Origin: an uncultured Planctomycetales bacterium
GTDB taxonomy: Bacteria; Omnitrophota; Gorgyraeia; Zapsychrales; JAHFFX01
Direction: 5' to 3'
Assembly: GCA_964372915.1 (NCBI GenBank)
Contig: CAYJRN010000003.1
Location: 16,376 to 80,375, forward strand
DNA length: 64,000 bases
The translations under genes and the position numbers were made by a program. Positions 51,889-61,012 of the stretch are shown here, piece by piece. Below the pieces are notes generated by a model, which did not search any database, was not told where the DNA came from, and worked only from the letters and a program-made list of their open reading frames with translations. How positions within the stretch are numbered: position 1 is the first letter of the stretch; every line of letters begins with the position of its first letter.

Positions 51889-53916
51889 GTGGACCGATTC
51901 ATCCTGGAGAGTAAGTTCAAACCCGTCGCTGAGCAGATCAAGGCGCTTCAACCGCTGGCTCACAATATCCAACGGGGTGTTAAGTCGCAGGTTCTTCTGG
52001 GGGTGACCGGCAGCGGCAAGACCTTTACCCTTGCCAATGTGATTGAAAAGCTCAATCGGCCCACCCTCGTCATTTCCCACAACAAAACCCTCGCCGCCCA
52101 GCTCTACAGCGAATTTAAGGGATTCTTTCCGCAGAATGCCGTCGAGTATTTTGTCAGTTACTACGATTATTACCAGCCGGAAGCCTACATTCCCCAAACC
52201 GATGTTTATATAGAGAAGGATTCTTCGATCAACGATCGTTTGGATCGCCTGCGCCTGGCCGCCACGACGTCCTTAATGTCCCGACGCGATTGTTTAATCG
52301 TTGCCAGCGTTTCCTGCATTTACAACTTGGGCGATCCGGCAGATTACAGAGAAGCCTTGCTCTTTCTTAAGAAAGAGCAGACCATTGATCGGGACGAGGT
52401 GTTGGCGAAGCTCATCGATATTCAGTATGAACGCAATGATTATGAATTCACGCGCGGAAAAGTGCGTGTGCGCGGGGACGTGGTGGAAGTTTTTCCGGCC
52501 TACCGGCAGGACGCGGTAAGGATTGAATTAAACGGCGACGCAATCGAGCGCCTCTCACAGATTGATCCCATTACGGCAAACGTCATTCAAGAGTTAGAGC
52601 AGGTGGCTATTTATCCGGCCAAACATTTCATCGTTCCGGAGCCGCGTCTTCAGGCGGCGCTTAAGGAGATCGAAGAGGAGTTGAAGGCGAGGGTGGCGGA
52701 GCTCAATGCCCAGGGCAAACTTCTGGAATCCCAGCGGCTCAATTCCCGCACGCGTTATGATATGGAAATGCTCAAAGAAATGGGATTTTGCCACGGCATT
52801 GAAAATTATTCGCGGGTCCTCTGTGGCCGTCCCGCCGGCTCGCGGCCATATTGTCTTTTGGATTATTTTCCGGAAGATTTTGTCGTACTCATTGATGAAT
52901 CGCACGTGACGGTCCCGCAATTAAACGGAATGTACGAGGGGGATCGCGCGCGCAAAGAAATGCTCGTCGAGTATGGGTTTCGTCTGCCGTCGTGTCTGGA
53001 TAACCGGCCGCTCAAGTTCAAAGAATTCGAGCAGCTCGTTAAGCAAAGGATCTATGTCTCAGCCACCCCGGGGCCTTTTGAGAAAAAAGAATCCGGAGGC
53101 TGTATCATCGAACAGATCATTCGCCCCACCGGAATTGTCGATCCGCCGATTGAGGTGAGGCAAAGCCAAGGACAAATTGAGGATTTGTTGGTTGAAATCA
53201 AGAAACGGGTCAAAGCCAACGAGCGCGTACTCGTAACCACTTTGACCAAACGCATGTCGGAAGATTTGAGTGAATATTTACAAGAGCAAGGGATCAAAGT
53301 CAAATATCTTCATTCCGACATCGAGACCATTGACCGGGCGAAGATCTTGCAGGATTTGCGCCTGCGAAAATTCGATTGCCTGGTGGGGGTCAACTTATTA
53401 AGAGAAGGCCTAGACCTGCCGGAGGTATCGCTGGTTGCCATTCTGGACGCGGATAAAGAAGGGTTCTTGCGTTCTCATACATCGCTTATTCAAACCTCGG
53501 GTCGTGCCGCGCGCAACATTCACGGCCTGGTCGTTATGTATGCCGATAAAATCACCTCGGCCATGCGCCTGACCATCAGTGAGTGCGAACGCCGTCGGAA
53601 AATTCAGATCGCATTTAACAAAGAGCACGGCATCACGCCGCGCTCGATTGAGAAGGCGATCAAACAGGGGATTGAGGAATGGGCGGATAGTGAAGAGTTG
53701 GTTATGGAGGCGACCGGCCAATCTCCGGAAGAATTTGCTGTCGCTTCGATTGTCGCCGATTTGGAGCGGGAAATGGAACTGGCCGCCCGCAACCTGCAAT
53801 TCGAGAAAGCGGCGCTCATTCGTGATAAGATTAAGGAAATTGAGGGAGGAGATTTTGCTCTTAGCGATCGACATAGGCAACACCGCGATCTGCCTCGCGG
53901 TTCTAAAAAACGCTAG
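51889..53916 (+). CDS. uvrB: Excinuclease ABC subunit B
   Basis: Helicase motifs GVTGSGKT and a UvrB C-terminal coiled coil. GTG start. Confidence 0.93.
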   Translation: MDRFILESKFKPVAEQIKALQPLAHNIQRGVKSQVLLGVTGSGKTFTLANVIEKLNRPTLVISHNKTLAAQLYSEFKGFFPQNAVEYFVSYYDYYQPEAYIPQTDVYIEKDSSINDRLDRLRLAATTSLMSRRDCLIVASVSCIYNLGDPADYREALLFLKKEQTIDRDEVLAKLIDIQYERNDYEFTRGKVRVRGDVVEVFPAYRQDAVRIELNGDAIERLSQIDPITANVIQELEQVAIYPAKHFIVPEPRLQAALKEIEEELKARVAELNAQGKLLESQRLNSRTRYDMEMLKEMGFCHGIENYSRVLCGRPAGSRPYCLLDYFPEDFVVLIDESHVTVPQLNGMYEGDRARKEMLVEYGFRLPSCLDNRPLKFKEFEQLVKQRIYVSATPGPFEKKESGGCIIEQIIRPTGIVDPPIEVRQSQGQIEDLLVEIKKRVKANERVLVTTLTKRMSEDLSEYLQEQGIKVKYLHSDIETIDRAKILQDLRLRKFDCLVGVNLLREGLDLPEVSLVAILDADKEGFLRSHTSLIQTSGRAARNIHGLVVMYADKITSAMRLTISECERRRKIQIAFNKEHGITPRSIEKAIKQGIEEWADSEELVMEATGQSPEEFAVASIVADLEREMELAARNLQFEKAALIRDKIKEIEGGDFALSDRHRQHRDLPRGSKKR

Positions 53917-54610
53917 AACACTTCAAGTCTGGCGCATCGACACCGTGCAGGAAAAATTTCTTTTATCGGTTCGATTAAATCCGATTTTAAAGGTGATCAA
54001 AAAAAAATATCCGCGAATTCAAAAGACGGTCATTTGCAGTGTCGTGCCGAATGTTTTAAAGATTTTGCAGCCGATCGTTAGGGCCGTCCCCGTGCGGGGA
54101 CGGCCCCTTATCATCGGCCAAGACATCAAGGTGCCGATTGTCAACCGTTATAATCATCGGCAAATCGGGCAGGATCGTTTGGTGTGCGCCTACGCCGCCA
54201 AAATCCTTTACGGACAACCGGCGATTGTGATCGATTTAGGAACCGCAATCACCTTTGATGTCGTGTCGGTTAAAGGCGAATATTTGGGTGGAGCGATTGT
54301 CCCAGGGATTCGGCTTTCAGCCGAATCCCTATACAAGAAAACCGCACTCCTTCCCAAAATAAAAATCAAAGGACCAGGGGATGTGATTGGTAAGAATACT
54401 GAAGCGAGTATCTTGAGCGGAATTTTTTATGGGTACGGAGCGTTGTGTGCCGGCATGATCGAGCTCGTGTCGAAAAAACTCGGCATCCGCCCCAAAGTAA
54501 TTTTGACCGGAGGCCATTCGCTCTTGATGAAAAAATACATCCCCGCCAAAATCCATGCGGTCGAGCCGGATTTGGTTTTGAAGGGGTTGGAGTTGTTGAG
54601 CCGCTTTTGA
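53855..54610 (+). CDS. coaX: Type III pantothenate kinase
   Basis: LLAIDIGNT N-terminus. A TTG start with a GGAGGA ribosome-binding site is proposed. It overlaps the uvrB tail. Confidence 0.75.
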   Translation: MLLAIDIGNTAICLAVLKNARTLQVWRIDTVQEKFLLSVRLNPILKVIKKKYPRIQKTVICSVVPNVLKILQPIVRAVPVRGRPLIIGQDIKVPIVNRYNHRQIGQDRLVCAYAAKILYGQPAIVIDLGTAITFDVVSVKGEYLGGAIVPGIRLSAESLYKKTALLPKIKIKGPGDVIGKNTEASILSGIFYGYGALCAGMIELVSKKLGIRPKVILTGGHSLLMKKYIPAKIHAVEPDLVLKGLELLSRF

Positions 54611-54615
54611 AGGCA

Positions 54616-54644
54616 TTGACAAAACAAGTTATAACTTGTATACT
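54616..54644 (+). promoter_or_regulatory. higBA promoter with palindromic operator
   Basis: TTGACA, a 17-nt spacer, then TATACT. The spacer contains the perfect 14-bp palindrome caagttataacttg. Confidence 0.5.
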
Positions 54645-54665
54645 TATATTGCAGAAAAAGGTCGA

Positions 54666-55016
54666 ATGTTAAAGTCAATTTATTTTTTTGTTGATGAGCG
54701 GGGCGATAACCCTGTCAAAGATTTTATTAAGAAATTGCCTTTTAAAGATCAAGCCAAAATTAGGGCTTATCTTGATGAGTTGAAAAAGCAAGGCCACAAT
54801 CTGCGCAGGCCCATGGCCGATTATCTGGGCGAAGGGATATATGAGCTAAGACCCCGCGATAACCGTATCTTTTATTTCTTCTTTTTACGCGACCACGCCG
54901 TTTTATTGCACGCTATAAAGAAAAAGACAGATAAAATTTCTTCGGGTGATTTGAACCTATGTCTTAAGAGAAAAAGGCAGGTGGAGGAGGAAAGAAACAT
55001 TGAGAACTTGTATTGA
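54666..55016 (+). CDS. higB: Gp49-like (HigB/RelE superfamily) toxin
   Basis: DUF891 pattern: YELRP...RIFYFF...LLHAIKKKT. Confidence 0.8.
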   Translation: MLKSIYFFVDERGDNPVKDFIKKLPFKDQAKIRAYLDELKKQGHNLRRPMADYLGEGIYELRPRDNRIFYFFFLRDHAVLLHAIKKKTDKISSGDLNLCLKRKRQVEEERNIENLY

Positions 55017-55030
55017 TAAGGAGGCCCCCA

Positions 55031-55357
55031 ATGGCAAATGTCCGTTTAGAAAATATAGATAGTTATTTTCAGGAGAAATTGAAAGACAAGAAATTTCGCC
55101 GTTTATATGAAATTGAACGCGTCAAAGTCACTCTGGCTCAAAAAATAGCCGAGATGCGTCAAGAAAAACATCTTAACCAGAAAGAATTGGCCGCGCGGCT
55201 GGGTGTTTCTCAGCAGTTTATCTCTCAGATCGAAACGGGAGAAGGGCGTAACCTAACTCTTGATACCCTGACCCGTATCGCCGAATCTCTGGGGCATAAG
55301 GTGCGAATCTCCTTTCCTAAAAGCATTGGCCGCGGCGCACACCTCGAAATAGCTTAA
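55031..55357 (+). CDS. higA: XRE-family HTH antitoxin
   Basis: QKELAARLGVSQQFISQIE is a helix-turn-helix. AAGGAGG ribosome-binding site. Confidence 0.8.
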   Translation: MANVRLENIDSYFQEKLKDKKFRRLYEIERVKVTLAQKIAEMRQEKHLNQKELAARLGVSQQFISQIETGEGRNLTLDTLTRIAESLGHKVRISFPKSIGRGAHLEIA

Positions 55358-55376
55358 TGGATATGTTCAGGATTCT

Positions 55377-55450
55377 TTCCGCCAAAATTCCCAAGGTCGA
55401 GCCGGATTTGGTTTTTAGGGGGATGGGGTTGGTGAGTAGAAAGCATAAAT
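55377..55450 (+). repeat. Diverged duplicate of the coaX 3' end
   Basis: gccaaaat..ggtcgagccggatttggtt matches 54543-54610. It translates as IPKVEPDLVFRGMGLVS, against IHAVEPDLVLKGLELLS in coaX. Confidence 0.65.
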
Positions 55451-55470
55451 AACGCGTAGGAGTTAAGCCT

Positions 55471-56271
55471 ATGTCCACAGAACCTCAATTTATTTCACCA
55501 GATCAATGGCATGATTTTTGTCGCTATCTGCGCAAAGAAAACAGGTACGTTTTGAATAAGAAATGGGATAGGTTTATTGAAACGATTTTATTTACAGCCA
55601 AGAAGCGGGAACATATTTTAATGAAGGGAGGGGTATTATATCGTGCGCGCATAGGCAGTAATGAACGGGAATATGAAGTTGAAGATGAAAATAAGAAAAG
55701 CCATTGGGGAATCGATATCAGTCCATTGCATCCACAGGAAATAGACGCCCCTCCTGATGGAAAGGCGTTAGAAGGAAGAATAAATCCGAAAGGAATCTCG
55801 TATCTTTATTTAGCAAATGACATAAAAACCGCCATATCAGAAGTCAGGCCTTGGTTGAATCAGAGCGTCACAGTGGGATGGTTTGGGTTAACTAGAGATT
55901 TAAGAGTCGTTGATGCATCTAAAGACAAGCATAGTCGTCATATTTTGTCAGAAGAAGAGATTGAGGAACCGTCAGAAAAATGGGAACCGTTTGTCTGGAG
56001 AGATATAAATAATTCTTTCTCTATGCCGGTTAACGTTGGTGAAGAGCATAATTATTATGTTCCAACTCAATATCTATCAGAATATTTTAAGAATGCCGGA
56101 TATGATGGAATTATTTACAAAAGCTCTTTAACTAAAGATGGATATAATATTGCTTTATTTGATCCAAAGGTTGCGCGTTTAAAAGGGGCATGGTTATATG
56201 ATGTTAAATCTATAGATTATGCTTATATAGAGAGCGCAAATCATTATGTGTGTAAAGAAGACCAAGAATGA
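55471..56271 (+). CDS. RES-domain protein (putative NAD-targeting toxin)
   Basis: LYRAR, GRINPKGISYLYLA...EV and DGIIYKSS...NIALFDP cover the R, E and S motifs. Confidence 0.7.
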   Translation: MSTEPQFISPDQWHDFCRYLRKENRYVLNKKWDRFIETILFTAKKREHILMKGGVLYRARIGSNEREYEVEDENKKSHWGIDISPLHPQEIDAPPDGKALEGRINPKGISYLYLANDIKTAISEVRPWLNQSVTVGWFGLTRDLRVVDASKDKHSRHILSEEEIEEPSEKWEPFVWRDINNSFSMPVNVGEEHNYYVPTQYLSEYFKNAGYDGIIYKSSLTKDGYNIALFDPKVARLKGAWLYDVKSIDYAYIESANHYVCKEDQE

Positions 56272-56381
56272 AATTTTAGAAATCGCGCCAGGCACAAATA
56301 AAAGGGGCAGGTTGTTTGCTTCCCCGGAATTTCTGGTAACGTCAATGGACGAACAAGCGGTTCTGCTGTATACTTAAAATC

Positions 56382-56675
56382 ATGAGCGAGCTGGATAAAA
56401 TTAAACAAACTTTAAGGCAGAATAAACCCGCGCTGACGAAAGAATTTAAAGTAAAGCAGCTGGGCGTGTTTGGTTCTTTCGTGCGAGGAAAGCAGAAGAA
56501 AAACAGCGACGTGGATATTCTGGTAGAATTTAGCCGCACTCCGGGCCTTTTTGATTTCCTTAAAATGGAAAACCGCCTGAGCGCGATATTGAAAAAACGC
56601 GTGGATTTGGTGATGAAGGGGTCATTAAAACCGGCGATCGGCAAAAATATCATGCACGAGGTTGTGTACGTATGA
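56382..56675 (+). CDS. Minimal nucleotidyltransferase (MntA-like antitoxin)
   Basis: GVFGSFVRGK...DVDILVEF motif. Confidence 0.8.
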   Translation: MSELDKIKQTLRQNKPALTKEFKVKQLGVFGSFVRGKQKKNSDVDILVEFSRTPGLFDFLKMENRLSAILKKRVDLVMKGSLKPAIGKNIMHEVVYV

Positions 56676-57010
56676 TCCGTGAATATAAGGATTACCTGGT
56701 CGATATTATTGATGCGATTGAGAAGGCGGAATCTTTTGTCAAAGGAATGAATTTTGAATCTTTCGAAAAAGATGCCAAAACTACGTTTGCGGTCATACGC
56801 GCTTTCGAGGTCATGGGAGAAGCCGTCAAGAAAATCCCTTCCAGCGTTCGCAATAAGCATAAGAATCTTCCGTGGAAAGAAATGGCCGGCATGAGAGATA
56901 AGCTCATCCACGAATACTTTGGCATTAAACCCCGTGTTGTCTGGAAAACCATCAAGCGAGACCTGCCCAAAATAAAACCCTACTTGCAATCTATCTTAGA
57001 TAGTCTTTAA
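56672..57010 (+). CDS. HepT/DUF86 HEPN toxin
   Basis: RDKLIHEY, the Rx4-6H motif. Confidence 0.75.
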   Translation: MIREYKDYLVDIIDAIEKAESFVKGMNFESFEKDAKTTFAVIRAFEVMGEAVKKIPSSVRNKHKNLPWKEMAGMRDKLIHEYFGIKPRVVWKTIKRDLPKIKPYLQSILDSL

Positions 57011-57041
57011 TCAAGATTTTGGATTGACCAGAAGGTCTGCA

Positions 57042-57137
57042 ATGATCAAGGTTCGTTTAGAAAAAATAGATGGTTATGTTCAGCAGAAGCTCAAACAGAG
57101 ACCATTCCCAGACACATACCGTAACCCAAATGCCTAA
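57042..57137 (+). pseudogene. Remnant of a higA-like 5' end
   Basis: MIKVRLEKIDGYVQQKLKQRPF matches higA MANVRLENIDSYFQEKLKDKKF; a stop follows. Confidence 0.5.
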
Positions 57138-58149
57138 ACCCCTCACCAAACCCAACGATTACAAGTCTCTCGTCCGAAAAGTTTCGCAAGAGCTTTCCGA
57201 GCTGGAGTTCTTTCTCAAGCGACGGACCGCAGAAGCTTACTGGAAAGTCGGGCGGTATATTCACGAGCATCTTTTGGAACACAAGGACAGGGCGGAGCAC
57301 GGTACAAATTTTTTTATAAGATTAGCCGAAGATGTTGACTACGACGTTTCCATTTTGCAGCGCTGTGTGAAATTCTACCGCGTTTACCCAATTTCCGCGG
57401 CGCCGCGGAAATTGACCTGGGAGCACTACAAGAGCCTGATCACCGTTAAGGACGAACAGGAGAGAAAGAAGCTTGAGCAAAAAGTTCTTCGTCATGATTG
57501 GAACACAAAAGAACTCCGGGAATATTTAAACACCAGGCGCGAGCTCACCGCGCCCGAGAACGACGACAAACCCGTCGCGCAACTCAAATTCACCTTTGGT
57601 AGGTTGCACGCCTACCAGATTGTCCAGGCCAACAAACCGCTTGCGAAAGAGAGTCCGCTGGTTTTGGATCTGGGGTTTCGTCTGCAGTATCTCATCCCTA
57701 AAAATGCCCCGCGCTTTAAGGAAAATGACACGGTTGAACTTCTCTTAAAAGAGGGAGAGATCTCCAGCGTCAAGAAAATCGAGTCTTCCAAAGACGAGCT
57801 CTTCACCTATCAAGCCCAGGTCGATAAAATCATCGATGGGGACACGCTGTTAACCTCGTTTGATTTGCATCTCAACGTTTCCATCAGCCAAAAACTGCGG
57901 CTGCGGGGCATTGACTGCCCGGAGATGGACACCGAGGAGGGAAGACGGGCCAAGCGCTTTGTCGAGGCCCGTCTGAAGGGCTGTGCTTTTATCATCGTTA
58001 AAACCATCAAAGACCGTTCGGATAAATTTGACCGCTACCTCGCCGATATTTTTTACCTGCCCGGCGCCACCGATCCATCGGTCGTTGCCCAAAAGGGAAC
58101 TTACCTTAATCAAGAGCTTCTCAACGAGCATTTGGCGGTGAGGTATTGA
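57130..58149 (+). CDS. YhcG_N (DUF1016 N-terminal) domain fused to a staphylococcal-nuclease (SNase/thermonuclease) domain
   Basis: AYWKVGRYIHEH...LTWEHYKSLITVKDEQER in the N-terminal half. DGDTL...RLRGIDCPE in the C-terminal half. Confidence 0.6.
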   Translation: MPKPLTKPNDYKSLVRKVSQELSELEFFLKRRTAEAYWKVGRYIHEHLLEHKDRAEHGTNFFIRLAEDVDYDVSILQRCVKFYRVYPISAAPRKLTWEHYKSLITVKDEQERKKLEQKVLRHDWNTKELREYLNTRRELTAPENDDKPVAQLKFTFGRLHAYQIVQANKPLAKESPLVLDLGFRLQYLIPKNAPRFKENDTVELLLKEGEISSVKKIESSKDELFTYQAQVDKIIDGDTLLTSFDLHLNVSISQKLRLRGIDCPEMDTEEGRRAKRFVEARLKGCAFIIVKTIKDRSDKFDRYLADIFYLPGATDPSVVAQKGTYLNQELLNEHLAVRY

Positions 58150-58211
58150 TGATTTTATAGTTTTTAGAATGCGGATGAGGTGTTATACTAAAATTCAAGG
58201 AGGGCGAGTTT

Positions 58212-58397
58212 ATGACGGCTAAACAAGAAGTCCGGTCTTTGCTTCAAAAATTACCTAAGGACTGCACCATTGAGGACATTCAGTACCATCTTTACGTCAT
58301 TGAAAAAATTCATAGAGGTCTTCAGCGGGCAAAGCGAGAGGGAGGCATTTCTCAACAGCAAGTTGAAAAACGGTTGACCAAATGGCTCATCAAGTAA
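58212..58397 (+). CDS. Addiction-module antitoxin (ParD/RelB-type small protein)
   Basis: A 61-aa protein whose gene overlaps the start of the decayed parE. Confidence 0.55.
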   Translation: MTAKQEVRSLLQKLPKDCTIEDIQYHLYVIEKIHRGLQRAKREGGISQQQVEKRLTKWLIK

Positions 58398-58706
58398 TAT
58401 GGTCTCCCGAAGCCGTTGAGGACGTGGAATCCATCGCTCAGTACATAAGCCGTGATTCGTAATTTTATGCCCGGGCTACGCTCTCCAAAATCCTCGATTT
58501 CTCTTATAGTATATAGTATCGCCCAATTCCCGTATATGGGTCGCATAGTTCCTGAGTGTAATGATAAGAACATCAGAGAACGATTGGTATATAGTTATCG
58601 ATTGGTGTACAAGATTGAACGTACAAAAATTCTTATTGTTGCGGTCATTCACGATAAACGATTATTTTATTCTGTTTCCGAACGCTTTATCCCTCCCCAA
58701 CCTTAA
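58382..58706 (+). pseudogene. ParE/RelE-family toxin gene, decayed
   Basis: N-terminus MAHQVIWSPEAVEDVESIAQYISRDS, then an in-frame TAA at 58460. The ParE C-terminus (FPYMGRIVPE...YRLVYKIE) continues in the +1 frame. Confidence 0.65.
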
Positions 58707-58733
58707 CGCCTTCTTTAGCAAAAAAATTATCCC

Positions 58734-58789
58734 TTGACAAAATTTTTTTGGTTTTGTACACTAGCACTCTATCAGAAGCAGTGCTAATT
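58734..58789 (+). promoter_or_regulatory. groESL sigma70 promoter plus CIRCE (HrcA operator)
   Basis: TTGACA, a 17-nt spacer, TACACT. CIRCE is TAGCACTC-N9-CAGTGCTAA. Confidence 0.7.
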
Positions 58790-58863
58790 GAAAATTTTGC
58801 TTAAAGATGAGCAAGAATAGTCCAACGGTTCAACTTTTAAAAAATTTAAAAGGAGGTGTTGTA

Positions 58864-59154
58864 GTGGATATCAAACCATTAGCCGATAGAATTGTCGTGA
58901 AGCCTTTGGAGGCGGAAGAAAAGACCAAGGGGGGCATTGTGTTACCGGATACGGCCAAGGAGAAACCCCAAGAAGGAAAAATTGTGGCGGTCGGCAAGGG
59001 CAAGGTTTTGGAGAACGGCCAACTCCAAACTCCGGAGGTGAAGGTCGGGGATCGCGTGTTGTATGGCAAATACAGCGGGACTGAGATTACCACCAAGGAC
59101 GGACAGGAACTTCTTATTATGAAGGAAGAGGATATTTTTGCGGTGGTTAAATAA
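58864..59154 (+). CDS. groES: Co-chaperonin GroES
   Basis: GTG start with an AAGGAGGTG ribosome-binding site. [15 protein letters not shown]-terminus. Confidence 0.88.
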
Positions 59155-59161
59155 ATGAGCA

Positions 59162-59266
59162 GGTAACTTACGGAGTCCGCCTTTGGCGGACGACGTAACT
59201 TACAAGTGCGAATTTACCCAGCACTTATTTTACGACACGGTATTTAAGCCAAAATAAGTGCTGGGT
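59162..59266 (+). repeat. Two adjacent palindromic repeats, copies E and C, in the groES-groEL spacer
   Basis: E is the same element family as copy D; C is the same as hairpin 1 of copies A and B. Confidence 0.65.
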
Positions 59267-59294
59267 TATCTAAAAAAATAATCGGAGGGAATAA

Positions 59295-60941
<1,647 letters not shown>

Positions 60942-60971
60942 TACCGCGTGTTGAAATAGCAGGAATGCCGA

Positions 60972-61012
60972 GGGGGCCCTGTCCGCCAGAGGCGGACAGG
61001 GCCCCCTTGTTT
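60972..61012 (+). terminator. Rho-independent terminator of groESL
   Basis: A 16-bp GC-rich stem, ggggccctgtccgcc / ggcggacagggccccc, followed by TTGTTTT. Confidence 0.75.

Follow-up and report, generated by a model that had tools for sequence, protein, structure and literature searches.

The gene described here lies in a window of 64,000 nucleotides, that is, the whole stretch of DNA that was analysed (assembly GCA_964372915.1, contig CAYJRN010000003.1, positions 16,376 to 80,375 of the forward strand), from an uncultured Planctomycetales bacterium whose GTDB lineage is Omnitrophota (Gorgyraeia; Zapsychrales; JAHFFX01). It occupies window positions 57130-58149 (plus strand, stop codon included), within an accessory island between coaX and groES, and encodes a nuclease of 339 amino acids in which three modules follow one another, namely an α-helical DUF1016_N head (residues 1-140, 57130-57549), a five-stranded small β-barrel (residues ~159-217, 57604-57780, delimited from the AlphaFold2 (AF2) secondary structure) and a staphylococcal nuclease (SNase, or thermonuclease) domain with an oligonucleotide/oligosaccharide-binding (OB) fold (residues 222-339, 57793-58146), all on the plus strand. 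The longest open reading frame (ORF) runs from 57070 to 58149 on the same strand (359 amino acids) and public gene callers place the start at 57076 (P0001, 357 amino acids, 100% identical); full-length homologs of ~340 amino acids align from an internal ATG at 57130 (MPKPLTK...), hence the 339-residue protein is the likely product. No second copy of the gene was found within the window.

The head was assigned by profile, structure model and structural comparison. Pfam places DUF1016_N (PF17761) at residues 52-155 of the longest ORF (E 5e-15, 56.2 bits against a gathering cut-off of 32.8), and a family profile of 42 sequences aligns with Escherichia coli K-12 YhcG over residues 34-138, matching residues 37-180 of YhcG only (hhalign probability 94.4%, E 9e-8). 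In the AF2 models, residues 11-50 form a single helix of 40 residues and residues 57-140 a helical bundle, and residues 1-225 modelled alone reach a predicted local distance difference test (pLDDT) score of 82. The head is basic (pI 9.5), and three comparisons lead to the same group of DNA-binding proteins: HTH_ParB (PF17762) scores 17.6 bits in the window protein and 22.2 bits in P0085, both under the Pfam cut-off of 22.6; a profile of residues 1-225 finds the Noc DNA-binding domain as its best match in the PDB (E 0.012), followed by Spo0J/ParB; and the best Foldseek matches of the model of residues 1-225 are ParB (6sdk) and Noc (6y93), with a probability of 0.96, E 0.07-0.09 and a low template modelling (TM) score. 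These matches are weak but agree with one another and with the basic pI, which points to a ParB/Noc-like helix-turn-helix (HTH) DNA-binding module.

The C-terminal half is an SNase domain. Pfam matches PF00565 at residues 275-358 of the longest ORF (E 6.8e-5, 23.7 bits against a cut-off of 21), the family profile finds Staphylococcus aureus nuclease in the PDB (E 3.8e-6), and the AF2 model made from the family alignment (mean pLDDT 86) superimposes its C-terminus on SNase structures in Foldseek (E 1.3e-6, target-normalised TM 0.65-0.67, ~118 aligned columns, 26-29% identity), the last SNase helix being missing from the window protein. The catalytic residues fall where they are known from SNase: IDGDT, within IIDGDTL, aligns to D19/D21, RLRGIDCPE to R35...D40-T41-P42-E43 and DKFDRY to R87. 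Across 260 relatives of 300-400 amino acids, D236 (SNase D19) and R257 (R35) are conserved in 100%, D238 (D21) in 99.6%, R302 (R87) in 99% and E265 (E43) in 96%, while the position of D262 (D40) is D in 82% and N in 17%, and C263 stands in place of T41, which contributes through its backbone. Conservation is highest in the SNase module, whose mean column entropy is 1.64 bits versus 2.1-2.3 bits in the head regions; judged from these alignments, this is the pattern that would be expected for an active enzyme.

E. coli YhcG continues behind its head into the PD-(D/E)xK nuclease domain YhcG_C (PF06250, residues 208-360, 192 bits in Pfam), and in the window protein neither YhcG_C nor another PD-(D/E)xK domain was matched by Pfam at E <= 0.1. 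Since the DUF1016_N head is present, the PD-(D/E)xK domain is absent and the C-terminal half folds as SNase, the exchange of one nuclease for another is real. The original prediction, made from the sequence alone, had proposed exactly this exchange, with a DUF1016_N N-terminus, an SNase C-terminus recognised by the motifs IIDGDTL and RLRGIDCPE, and catalytic Asp, Glu and Arg residues; the profile searches returned neither a PD-(D/E)xK fold in the C-terminal half nor a different N-terminus, and structure model and alignment supply the residues as D238, D262, E265, R257 and R302.

Between head and nuclease, the β-barrel is the most variable module (mean column entropy 2.7 bits in the 260 relatives). 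G157, D180, G182 and F183 of the barrel region are invariant or nearly so and include a DxGF motif, hence the barrel is functionally constrained despite its variability. A confident fold could not be assigned to it, as Foldseek gave only weak OB-, S1- and IF1-like matches with E > 1.

The same architecture defines a very large family, so that the claim of the original prediction that it is unusual did not hold. A word-indexed search gave 1402 matches, of which the best 120 are nearly all full length, with few fragments, at 45-70% identity, and most of these carry PF17761 together with PF00565. The named matches come from metagenome-assembled genomes (MAGs) of Omnitrophota, most matches having no source name, and the names in use at NCBI are "thermonuclease family protein" and "DUF1016 N-terminal domain-containing protein". 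When 1.84 billion cluster representatives were searched exhaustively with a profile, 983 clusters, counted at 50% identity, matched at E <= 1e-30, the best 150 being mostly full length. In the GTDB set, with one genome per species, there are 262 loci, 80 of which, from 53 assemblies, were retained for analysis; two to four divergent copies are present in 19 of the 53. The hosts are mainly Omnitrophota, and also include Latescibacterota, Spirochaetota, Elusimicrobiota, Deltaproteobacteria-type MAGs, Opitutus and Margulisbacteria. Within this large, catalogued and uncharacterised family, the window gene is thus an ordinary member.

In pathogenic Leptospira, 24 plasmids carry distant full-length members (26-29% identity). 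In these proteins Trp takes the D40-equivalent position and Ala that of Pro42, and the Pfam SNase match is lost; they may therefore be catalytically altered. On the plasmids of Leptospira weilii and L. interrogans, two members (L083 5908-6906 and L084 5746-6735) adjoin RHS toxin/immunity genes and Rpn-family nucleases. These plasmid homologs, the 17% of members in which N replaces the D40-equivalent Ca2+ ligand and the ParB/Noc-like head all speak for a protein whose main function is DNA-binding regulation or something akin to partition, with an SNase domain that binds nucleic acid as an OB-fold and is not an enzyme. We regard this as quite improbable, because the full set of catalytic residues is intact in the window protein and near-invariant in most relatives, which is unexpected for a domain that only binds.

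Another alternative takes its cue from the classic SNase, which is an exoenzyme, and from the expansion of the family in Omnitrophota: the protein could be a secreted or prey-directed nuclease with which host-dependent Omnitrophota digest foreign DNA for nutrients. A hydropathy scan of the protein found no signal peptide and no hydrophobic segment, the highest Kyte-Doolittle value over 19 residues being 0.79, and the N-terminus is polar and, in the AF2 model, helical; furthermore, a sequence-reading HTH head would be unexpected on a scavenging enzyme and no secretion genes are conserved near the family, all of which leaves this alternative barely credible.

In the window, the gene order around the nuclease is a rluD-like gene, uvrB (51889-53916), coaX (to 54610), the island (54611-58806, ~4.2 kb, plus strand), groES (58807) and groEL (59298). 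In two Omnitrophota relatives (L086 7001-8229 and L087 7001-8247) the order uvrB-coaX-groES-groEL is kept and only 161-185 nucleotides separate coaX from groES, hence the island is an insertion. It contains, all on the plus strand, a higB-like gene (Gp49), a higA-like gene (HTH_3), a scar derived from the 3' end of coaX, genes for a RES-domain protein, MNT and HepT, a higBA scar, the nuclease gene, an antitoxin-like ORF of 61 amino acids and a frameshifted parE, so that the location within a toxin-antitoxin (TA) island, as originally proposed, is confirmed by Pfam. Even the nearest CoaX homologs reach only ~60% identity, and their site is empty; the order of the insertions could accordingly not be reconstructed from relatives. 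The GC content is 0.37-0.44 in the TA genes and 0.50 in the nuclease gene, like that of core genes, with a window mean of 0.486.

The island is visibly decaying, as seen in the duplicated end of coaX, the frameshifted parE and the higBA scar. The 3' end of coaX recurs after higBA (54543-54600 versus 55379-55436, 83% identity over 58 nucleotides), where a small ORF (55357-55452) encodes a peptide like the CoaX C-terminus; this is a second recombination scar and suggests that a replacement end of coaX came in along with higBA. In parE (58382-58706), whose start overlaps the stop codon of the antitoxin-like ORF and which is skipped by public gene calls, one frame holds the first 26 codons (MAHQVIWSPEAVEDVESIAQYISRDS) and another the rest. 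The RES-domain protein (55471-56271, 266 amino acids) has an N-terminal extension of ~95 amino acids, and its gene has no adjacent Xre/DUF2384-type antitoxin gene, the gene upstream coding for the HigA-like HTH_3 protein. Downstream of the island, a perfect inverted repeat of 16 nucleotides (59216-59231 and 59251-59266, ACCCAGCACTTATTTT ... AAAATAAGTGCTGGGT) lies between groES and groEL; its half-site AGCACTT presumably bears a loose resemblance to the CIRCE operator. It has no match in Rfam, and a scan of positions 53000-61000 matched no RNA family.

The higBA scar (57014-57095, plus strand) directly precedes the nuclease gene and was recognised from a repeat match, by blastn and at the peptide level. 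It corresponds to the junction between the higB stop and the higA start at 55003-55084 (74% identity over 82 nucleotides; blastn 77% over 70 nucleotides, E 1.6e-9), starts three bases past the hepT stop codon and fades ~25-35 nucleotides short of the nuclease ATG. The match covers the last ~6 codons of higB and, from an ATG at 57042, approximately the first 22 codons of higA, with 17 of 32 residues identical to HigA-like peptides; the higA-like start noted by the original prediction is therefore beyond chance. The intact HigA-like gene (55013-55357) has its HTH at residues 45-94 and the scar resembles only its first 22-32 codons; likewise, the 37-residue higA-like ORF has no HTH_3 or Xre domain and no Pfam match, so that the piece is a fragment and not a gene. 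Blastn found no counterpart upstream of the 80 homolog loci, and the idea that the higA-like piece belongs to a mobile cassette was rejected for this reason. A second higBA copy, or a duplicated higBA junction, is thus truncated here. Displacement of this copy by the nuclease gene, as had been proposed, is plausible and fits the scar, which is however indistinguishable from the outcome of other rearrangements; it does not show that the insertion caused the truncation, and no relative was found that is close enough to reveal the ancestral state.

The scar retains an ORF of 31 codons (57042-57137, plus strand) with a Shine-Dalgarno-like AGAAGG at 57029-57034, and its stop codon overlaps the nuclease ATG (ATGCCTAA). 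Because no Shine-Dalgarno sequence of its own and no promoter-like site were seen directly upstream of the nuclease gene, no terminator-like site was seen after hepT, and the scar ORF overlaps the nuclease start, it is plausible that the nuclease gene would be co-transcribed with MNT/HepT and translationally coupled to the scar ORF as a leader.

For the family as a whole, genomic context was sampled by clustering the ORFs within four genes on either side of 78 loci and by scanning the 144 immediate neighbours with Pfam and PADLOC. Pfam assigns the immediate neighbours to 155 different families, most often ORF6N (5 of 144), PdxA and the MNT nucleotidyltransferase (3 each), and PIN and Bro-N (2 each), and no conserved partner or immunity gene recurs. 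PADLOC matches that recur among the neighbours are to candidate systems and comprise PDC-S05 (5), PDC-M05A (3), PDC-S09 (3), PDC-S13, PDC-S04, mad2 and methyltransferases. Those neighbours that do recur (ORF6N/PDC-S05, MNT/PDC-M05A, PIN, Bro-N and methyltransferases) are of a type usual in islands. This bears on the possibility that the nuclease is the toxin of a TA pair, checked by a small neighbouring antitoxin, for which one could cite the position of the gene between MNT/HepT and an antitoxin/ParE pair, the toxicity that SNase-type nucleases would have in the cytoplasm and the overlap of the scar ORF with the nuclease start codon. A cognate antitoxin is not conserved, given that no neighbour family exceeds 5 of 144 and that many neighbours are housekeeping genes; the higA scar, which lacks an HTH domain, is absent upstream of every homolog, and the ORF of 61 amino acids downstream pairs with the frameshifted parE. 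On this evidence a TA pair is very improbable.

Some members occupy the same site in different genomes. In four genomes (L006, L008, L041 and L045) a family member lies at the junction of pdxA and rsmA, where the occupants form two pairs with just 36% identity between them and with different other cargo alongside. Vertical inheritance at this site was rejected on both grounds, and the site is an insertion hotspot rather than the place of an inherited ortholog. Besides pdxA-rsmA, the housekeeping region lpxI-lysS (L030, L033 and L034) is a recurrent landing site for members and small cargo such as Bro-N. The family is thus carried as cargo in short islets of variable content that lie among housekeeping genes.

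Flanks were compared in search of terminal repeats or target-site motifs conserved next to the gene, leaving aside one shared-flank pair and a few short matches, and the sole recurrent element is a palindrome, GGGACAC(A/G)nTACTTAATT...AAATAAGTAnTGTGTCCC, which recurs in several Omnitrophota MAGs (L001 5937-5971, L004 5953-5979, L008 5907-5938, L027 217-251, L029 2317-2353, and also L028, L046 and L054). Five of its 10 copies in 714 kb lie 48-102 nucleotides upstream of family genes, and the window has none; an operator, a REP-like element and a cassette boundary are all conceivable. Separately, ORFs just upstream of three homologs (L012 117-323, L005 5365-5988 and L025 5717-5959) share the C-terminal motif EFLIIYGLKEVKEMC..., and that of L012 contains ADVFYLPGEKD, which resembles the leftover SNase domain of another family member; this suggests tandem decay.

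The hotspot and the empty site also bear on a more conservative explanation, in which the protein is a lineage-typical housekeeping nuclease of DNA repair, recombination, nucleoid processing or nucleotide salvage. Such a role would agree with a GC content that matches the core genome, with the many copies that stand in same-strand strings of housekeeping genes with short gaps, with the very wide spread of the family in Omnitrophota and with the strong purifying selection on the catalytic residues. It fits poorly with the empty site in L086 and L087, a copy number that ranges from 1 to at least 4 with divergent paralogs, the 36%-identical occupants of one pdxA-rsmA site with their other cargo, and a patchy distribution outside Omnitrophota that includes Leptospira plasmids, and its surroundings show no conserved partners for repair or recombination; we therefore judge it unlikely.

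The reading we prefer is that of a solo cytoplasmic three-module nuclease, tethered to DNA, that would serve as an accessory conflict or defence gene. The basic helical head with its ParB/Noc-like HTH core would bind DNA and probably dimerise through the N-terminal helix of 40 residues, the β-barrel with the invariant DxGF would join head and nuclease, and the SNase domain would cut nucleic acid by a Ca2+-dependent Asp/Arg/Glu mechanism as in SNase. Its role may be defence against, or competition between, mobile DNA, in a lifestyle like that of YhcG/PDC-S02 with a different nuclease effector. What suggests a conflict with mobile DNA is an accessory gene in several divergent copies that is found as cargo at hotspots, alongside TA and candidate-defence genes. 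The biochemical part, a YhcG-type head followed by barrel and SNase nuclease, we hold with considerable confidence; the defence or conflict role taken by itself stays tentative and falls short of being probable, and the statement as a whole we place just on the probable side. For the suggestion of the original prediction that the gene is a plausible candidate for a novel defence effector no direct support was obtained, and the match to the PADLOC candidate system PDC-S02 is confined to the N-terminus.

Several observations weigh against this reading. The PDC-S02 models are matched in their N-terminal parts (to E 1.7e-19, e.g., over positions 36-151 of 351) and none over its full length, their C-terminal nuclease part being unmatched, and PDC-S02 is itself a candidate system, of which the one tested representative was not among the protectors of E. 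coli B against T4, T5 and T7 (bioRxiv 10.1101/2024.09.26.614923). The ParB/Noc likeness of the head falls below curated thresholds. The proposed conflict role is drawn from genomic context; the defence-type neighbours are raw counts and suggestive only, and many neighbours are housekeeping genes (leuS, lysS, rsmA, lpxI and pdxA). The core-like GC content of the nuclease gene suggests long residence in the lineage. Neither the phage genome records nor the best 80 matches to IMG/VR viral contigs hold the full-length fusion, and both give only short stand-alone SNases, 35-46% identical to the SNase domain of the window protein, so that the link to mobile elements is carried by the island context and the Leptospira plasmids. 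A literature search on DUF1016 with SNase, on PF17761 and on Omnitrophota with thermonuclease found no paper on the architecture. Finally, the reading leaves unexplained how a non-specific cytoplasmic nuclease without an immunity partner would be kept from damaging its own cell.

In a bolder version, which we consider unlikely, DUF1016_N would be a portable DNA-sensing module wired to interchangeable nucleases, PD-(D/E)xK in YhcG/PDC-S02 and SNase in the window protein, and the SNase version a single-gene immunity against mobile elements whose nuclease stays silent until triggered. The head or the DxGF barrel might recognise foreign DNA and release the nuclease or, just as speculatively, a rise of cytoplasmic Ca2+ upon envelope damage might serve as the trigger. 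If true, a portable-sensor SNase immunity protein would have been massively expanded in the ultra-small Omnitrophota.

For the window itself, the result mostly clarifies, placing an ordinary family member in a decaying TA island. Its wider interest lies in the head, as YhcG/DUF1016 proteins, often found on mobile elements and close to restriction-modification (R-M) systems, have been without a known function since at least 2005; a sister family that has the same head with a well-understood nuclease marks the head as the conserved portable part and offers an easier handle for assays. With ~1,000 clusters at 50% identity the family is large, and it is present in several copies in Omnitrophota, for which experimental genetics hardly exists; its distant members on plasmids of culturable Leptospira are a possible experimental entry point.

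Three known systems come closest to the window protein. The HTH of ParB, Noc and Spo0J (PF17762; 6y93, 7ng0, 6sdk) provides the best PDB matches for residues ~60-140, all of them sub-threshold, but the window protein has neither the N-terminal CTPase domain of these proteins nor a partition-gene context. S. aureus Nuc (PF00565; PDB 3bdc and related entries) has in common with it the OB-fold and D21, R35, D40, E43 and R87, whereas the window protein lacks the signal peptide and the last helix, has Cys for T41 and carries the nuclease fused behind head and barrel; the chemistry of SNase is textbook knowledge, and the closest stand-alone relatives of the domain are the small phage-encoded SNases at 35-46% identity. 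YhcG (COG4804; PF17761 + PF06250; PADLOC candidate PDC-S02) has, to our knowledge, never been characterised and offers no mechanism to borrow. Its head is homologous to that of the window protein, in which the PD-(D/E)xK domain YhcG_C is replaced by β-barrel and SNase, and both follow the same lifestyle, being solo genes without conserved neighbours, with several paralogs per genome, in islands or on mobile elements. For canonical YhcG, the lack of conserved neighbours and the multiple paralogs are documented, as is its occasional presence in type I R-M loci or integrative elements (PMC1189080, PMC4316617, PMC9881135).

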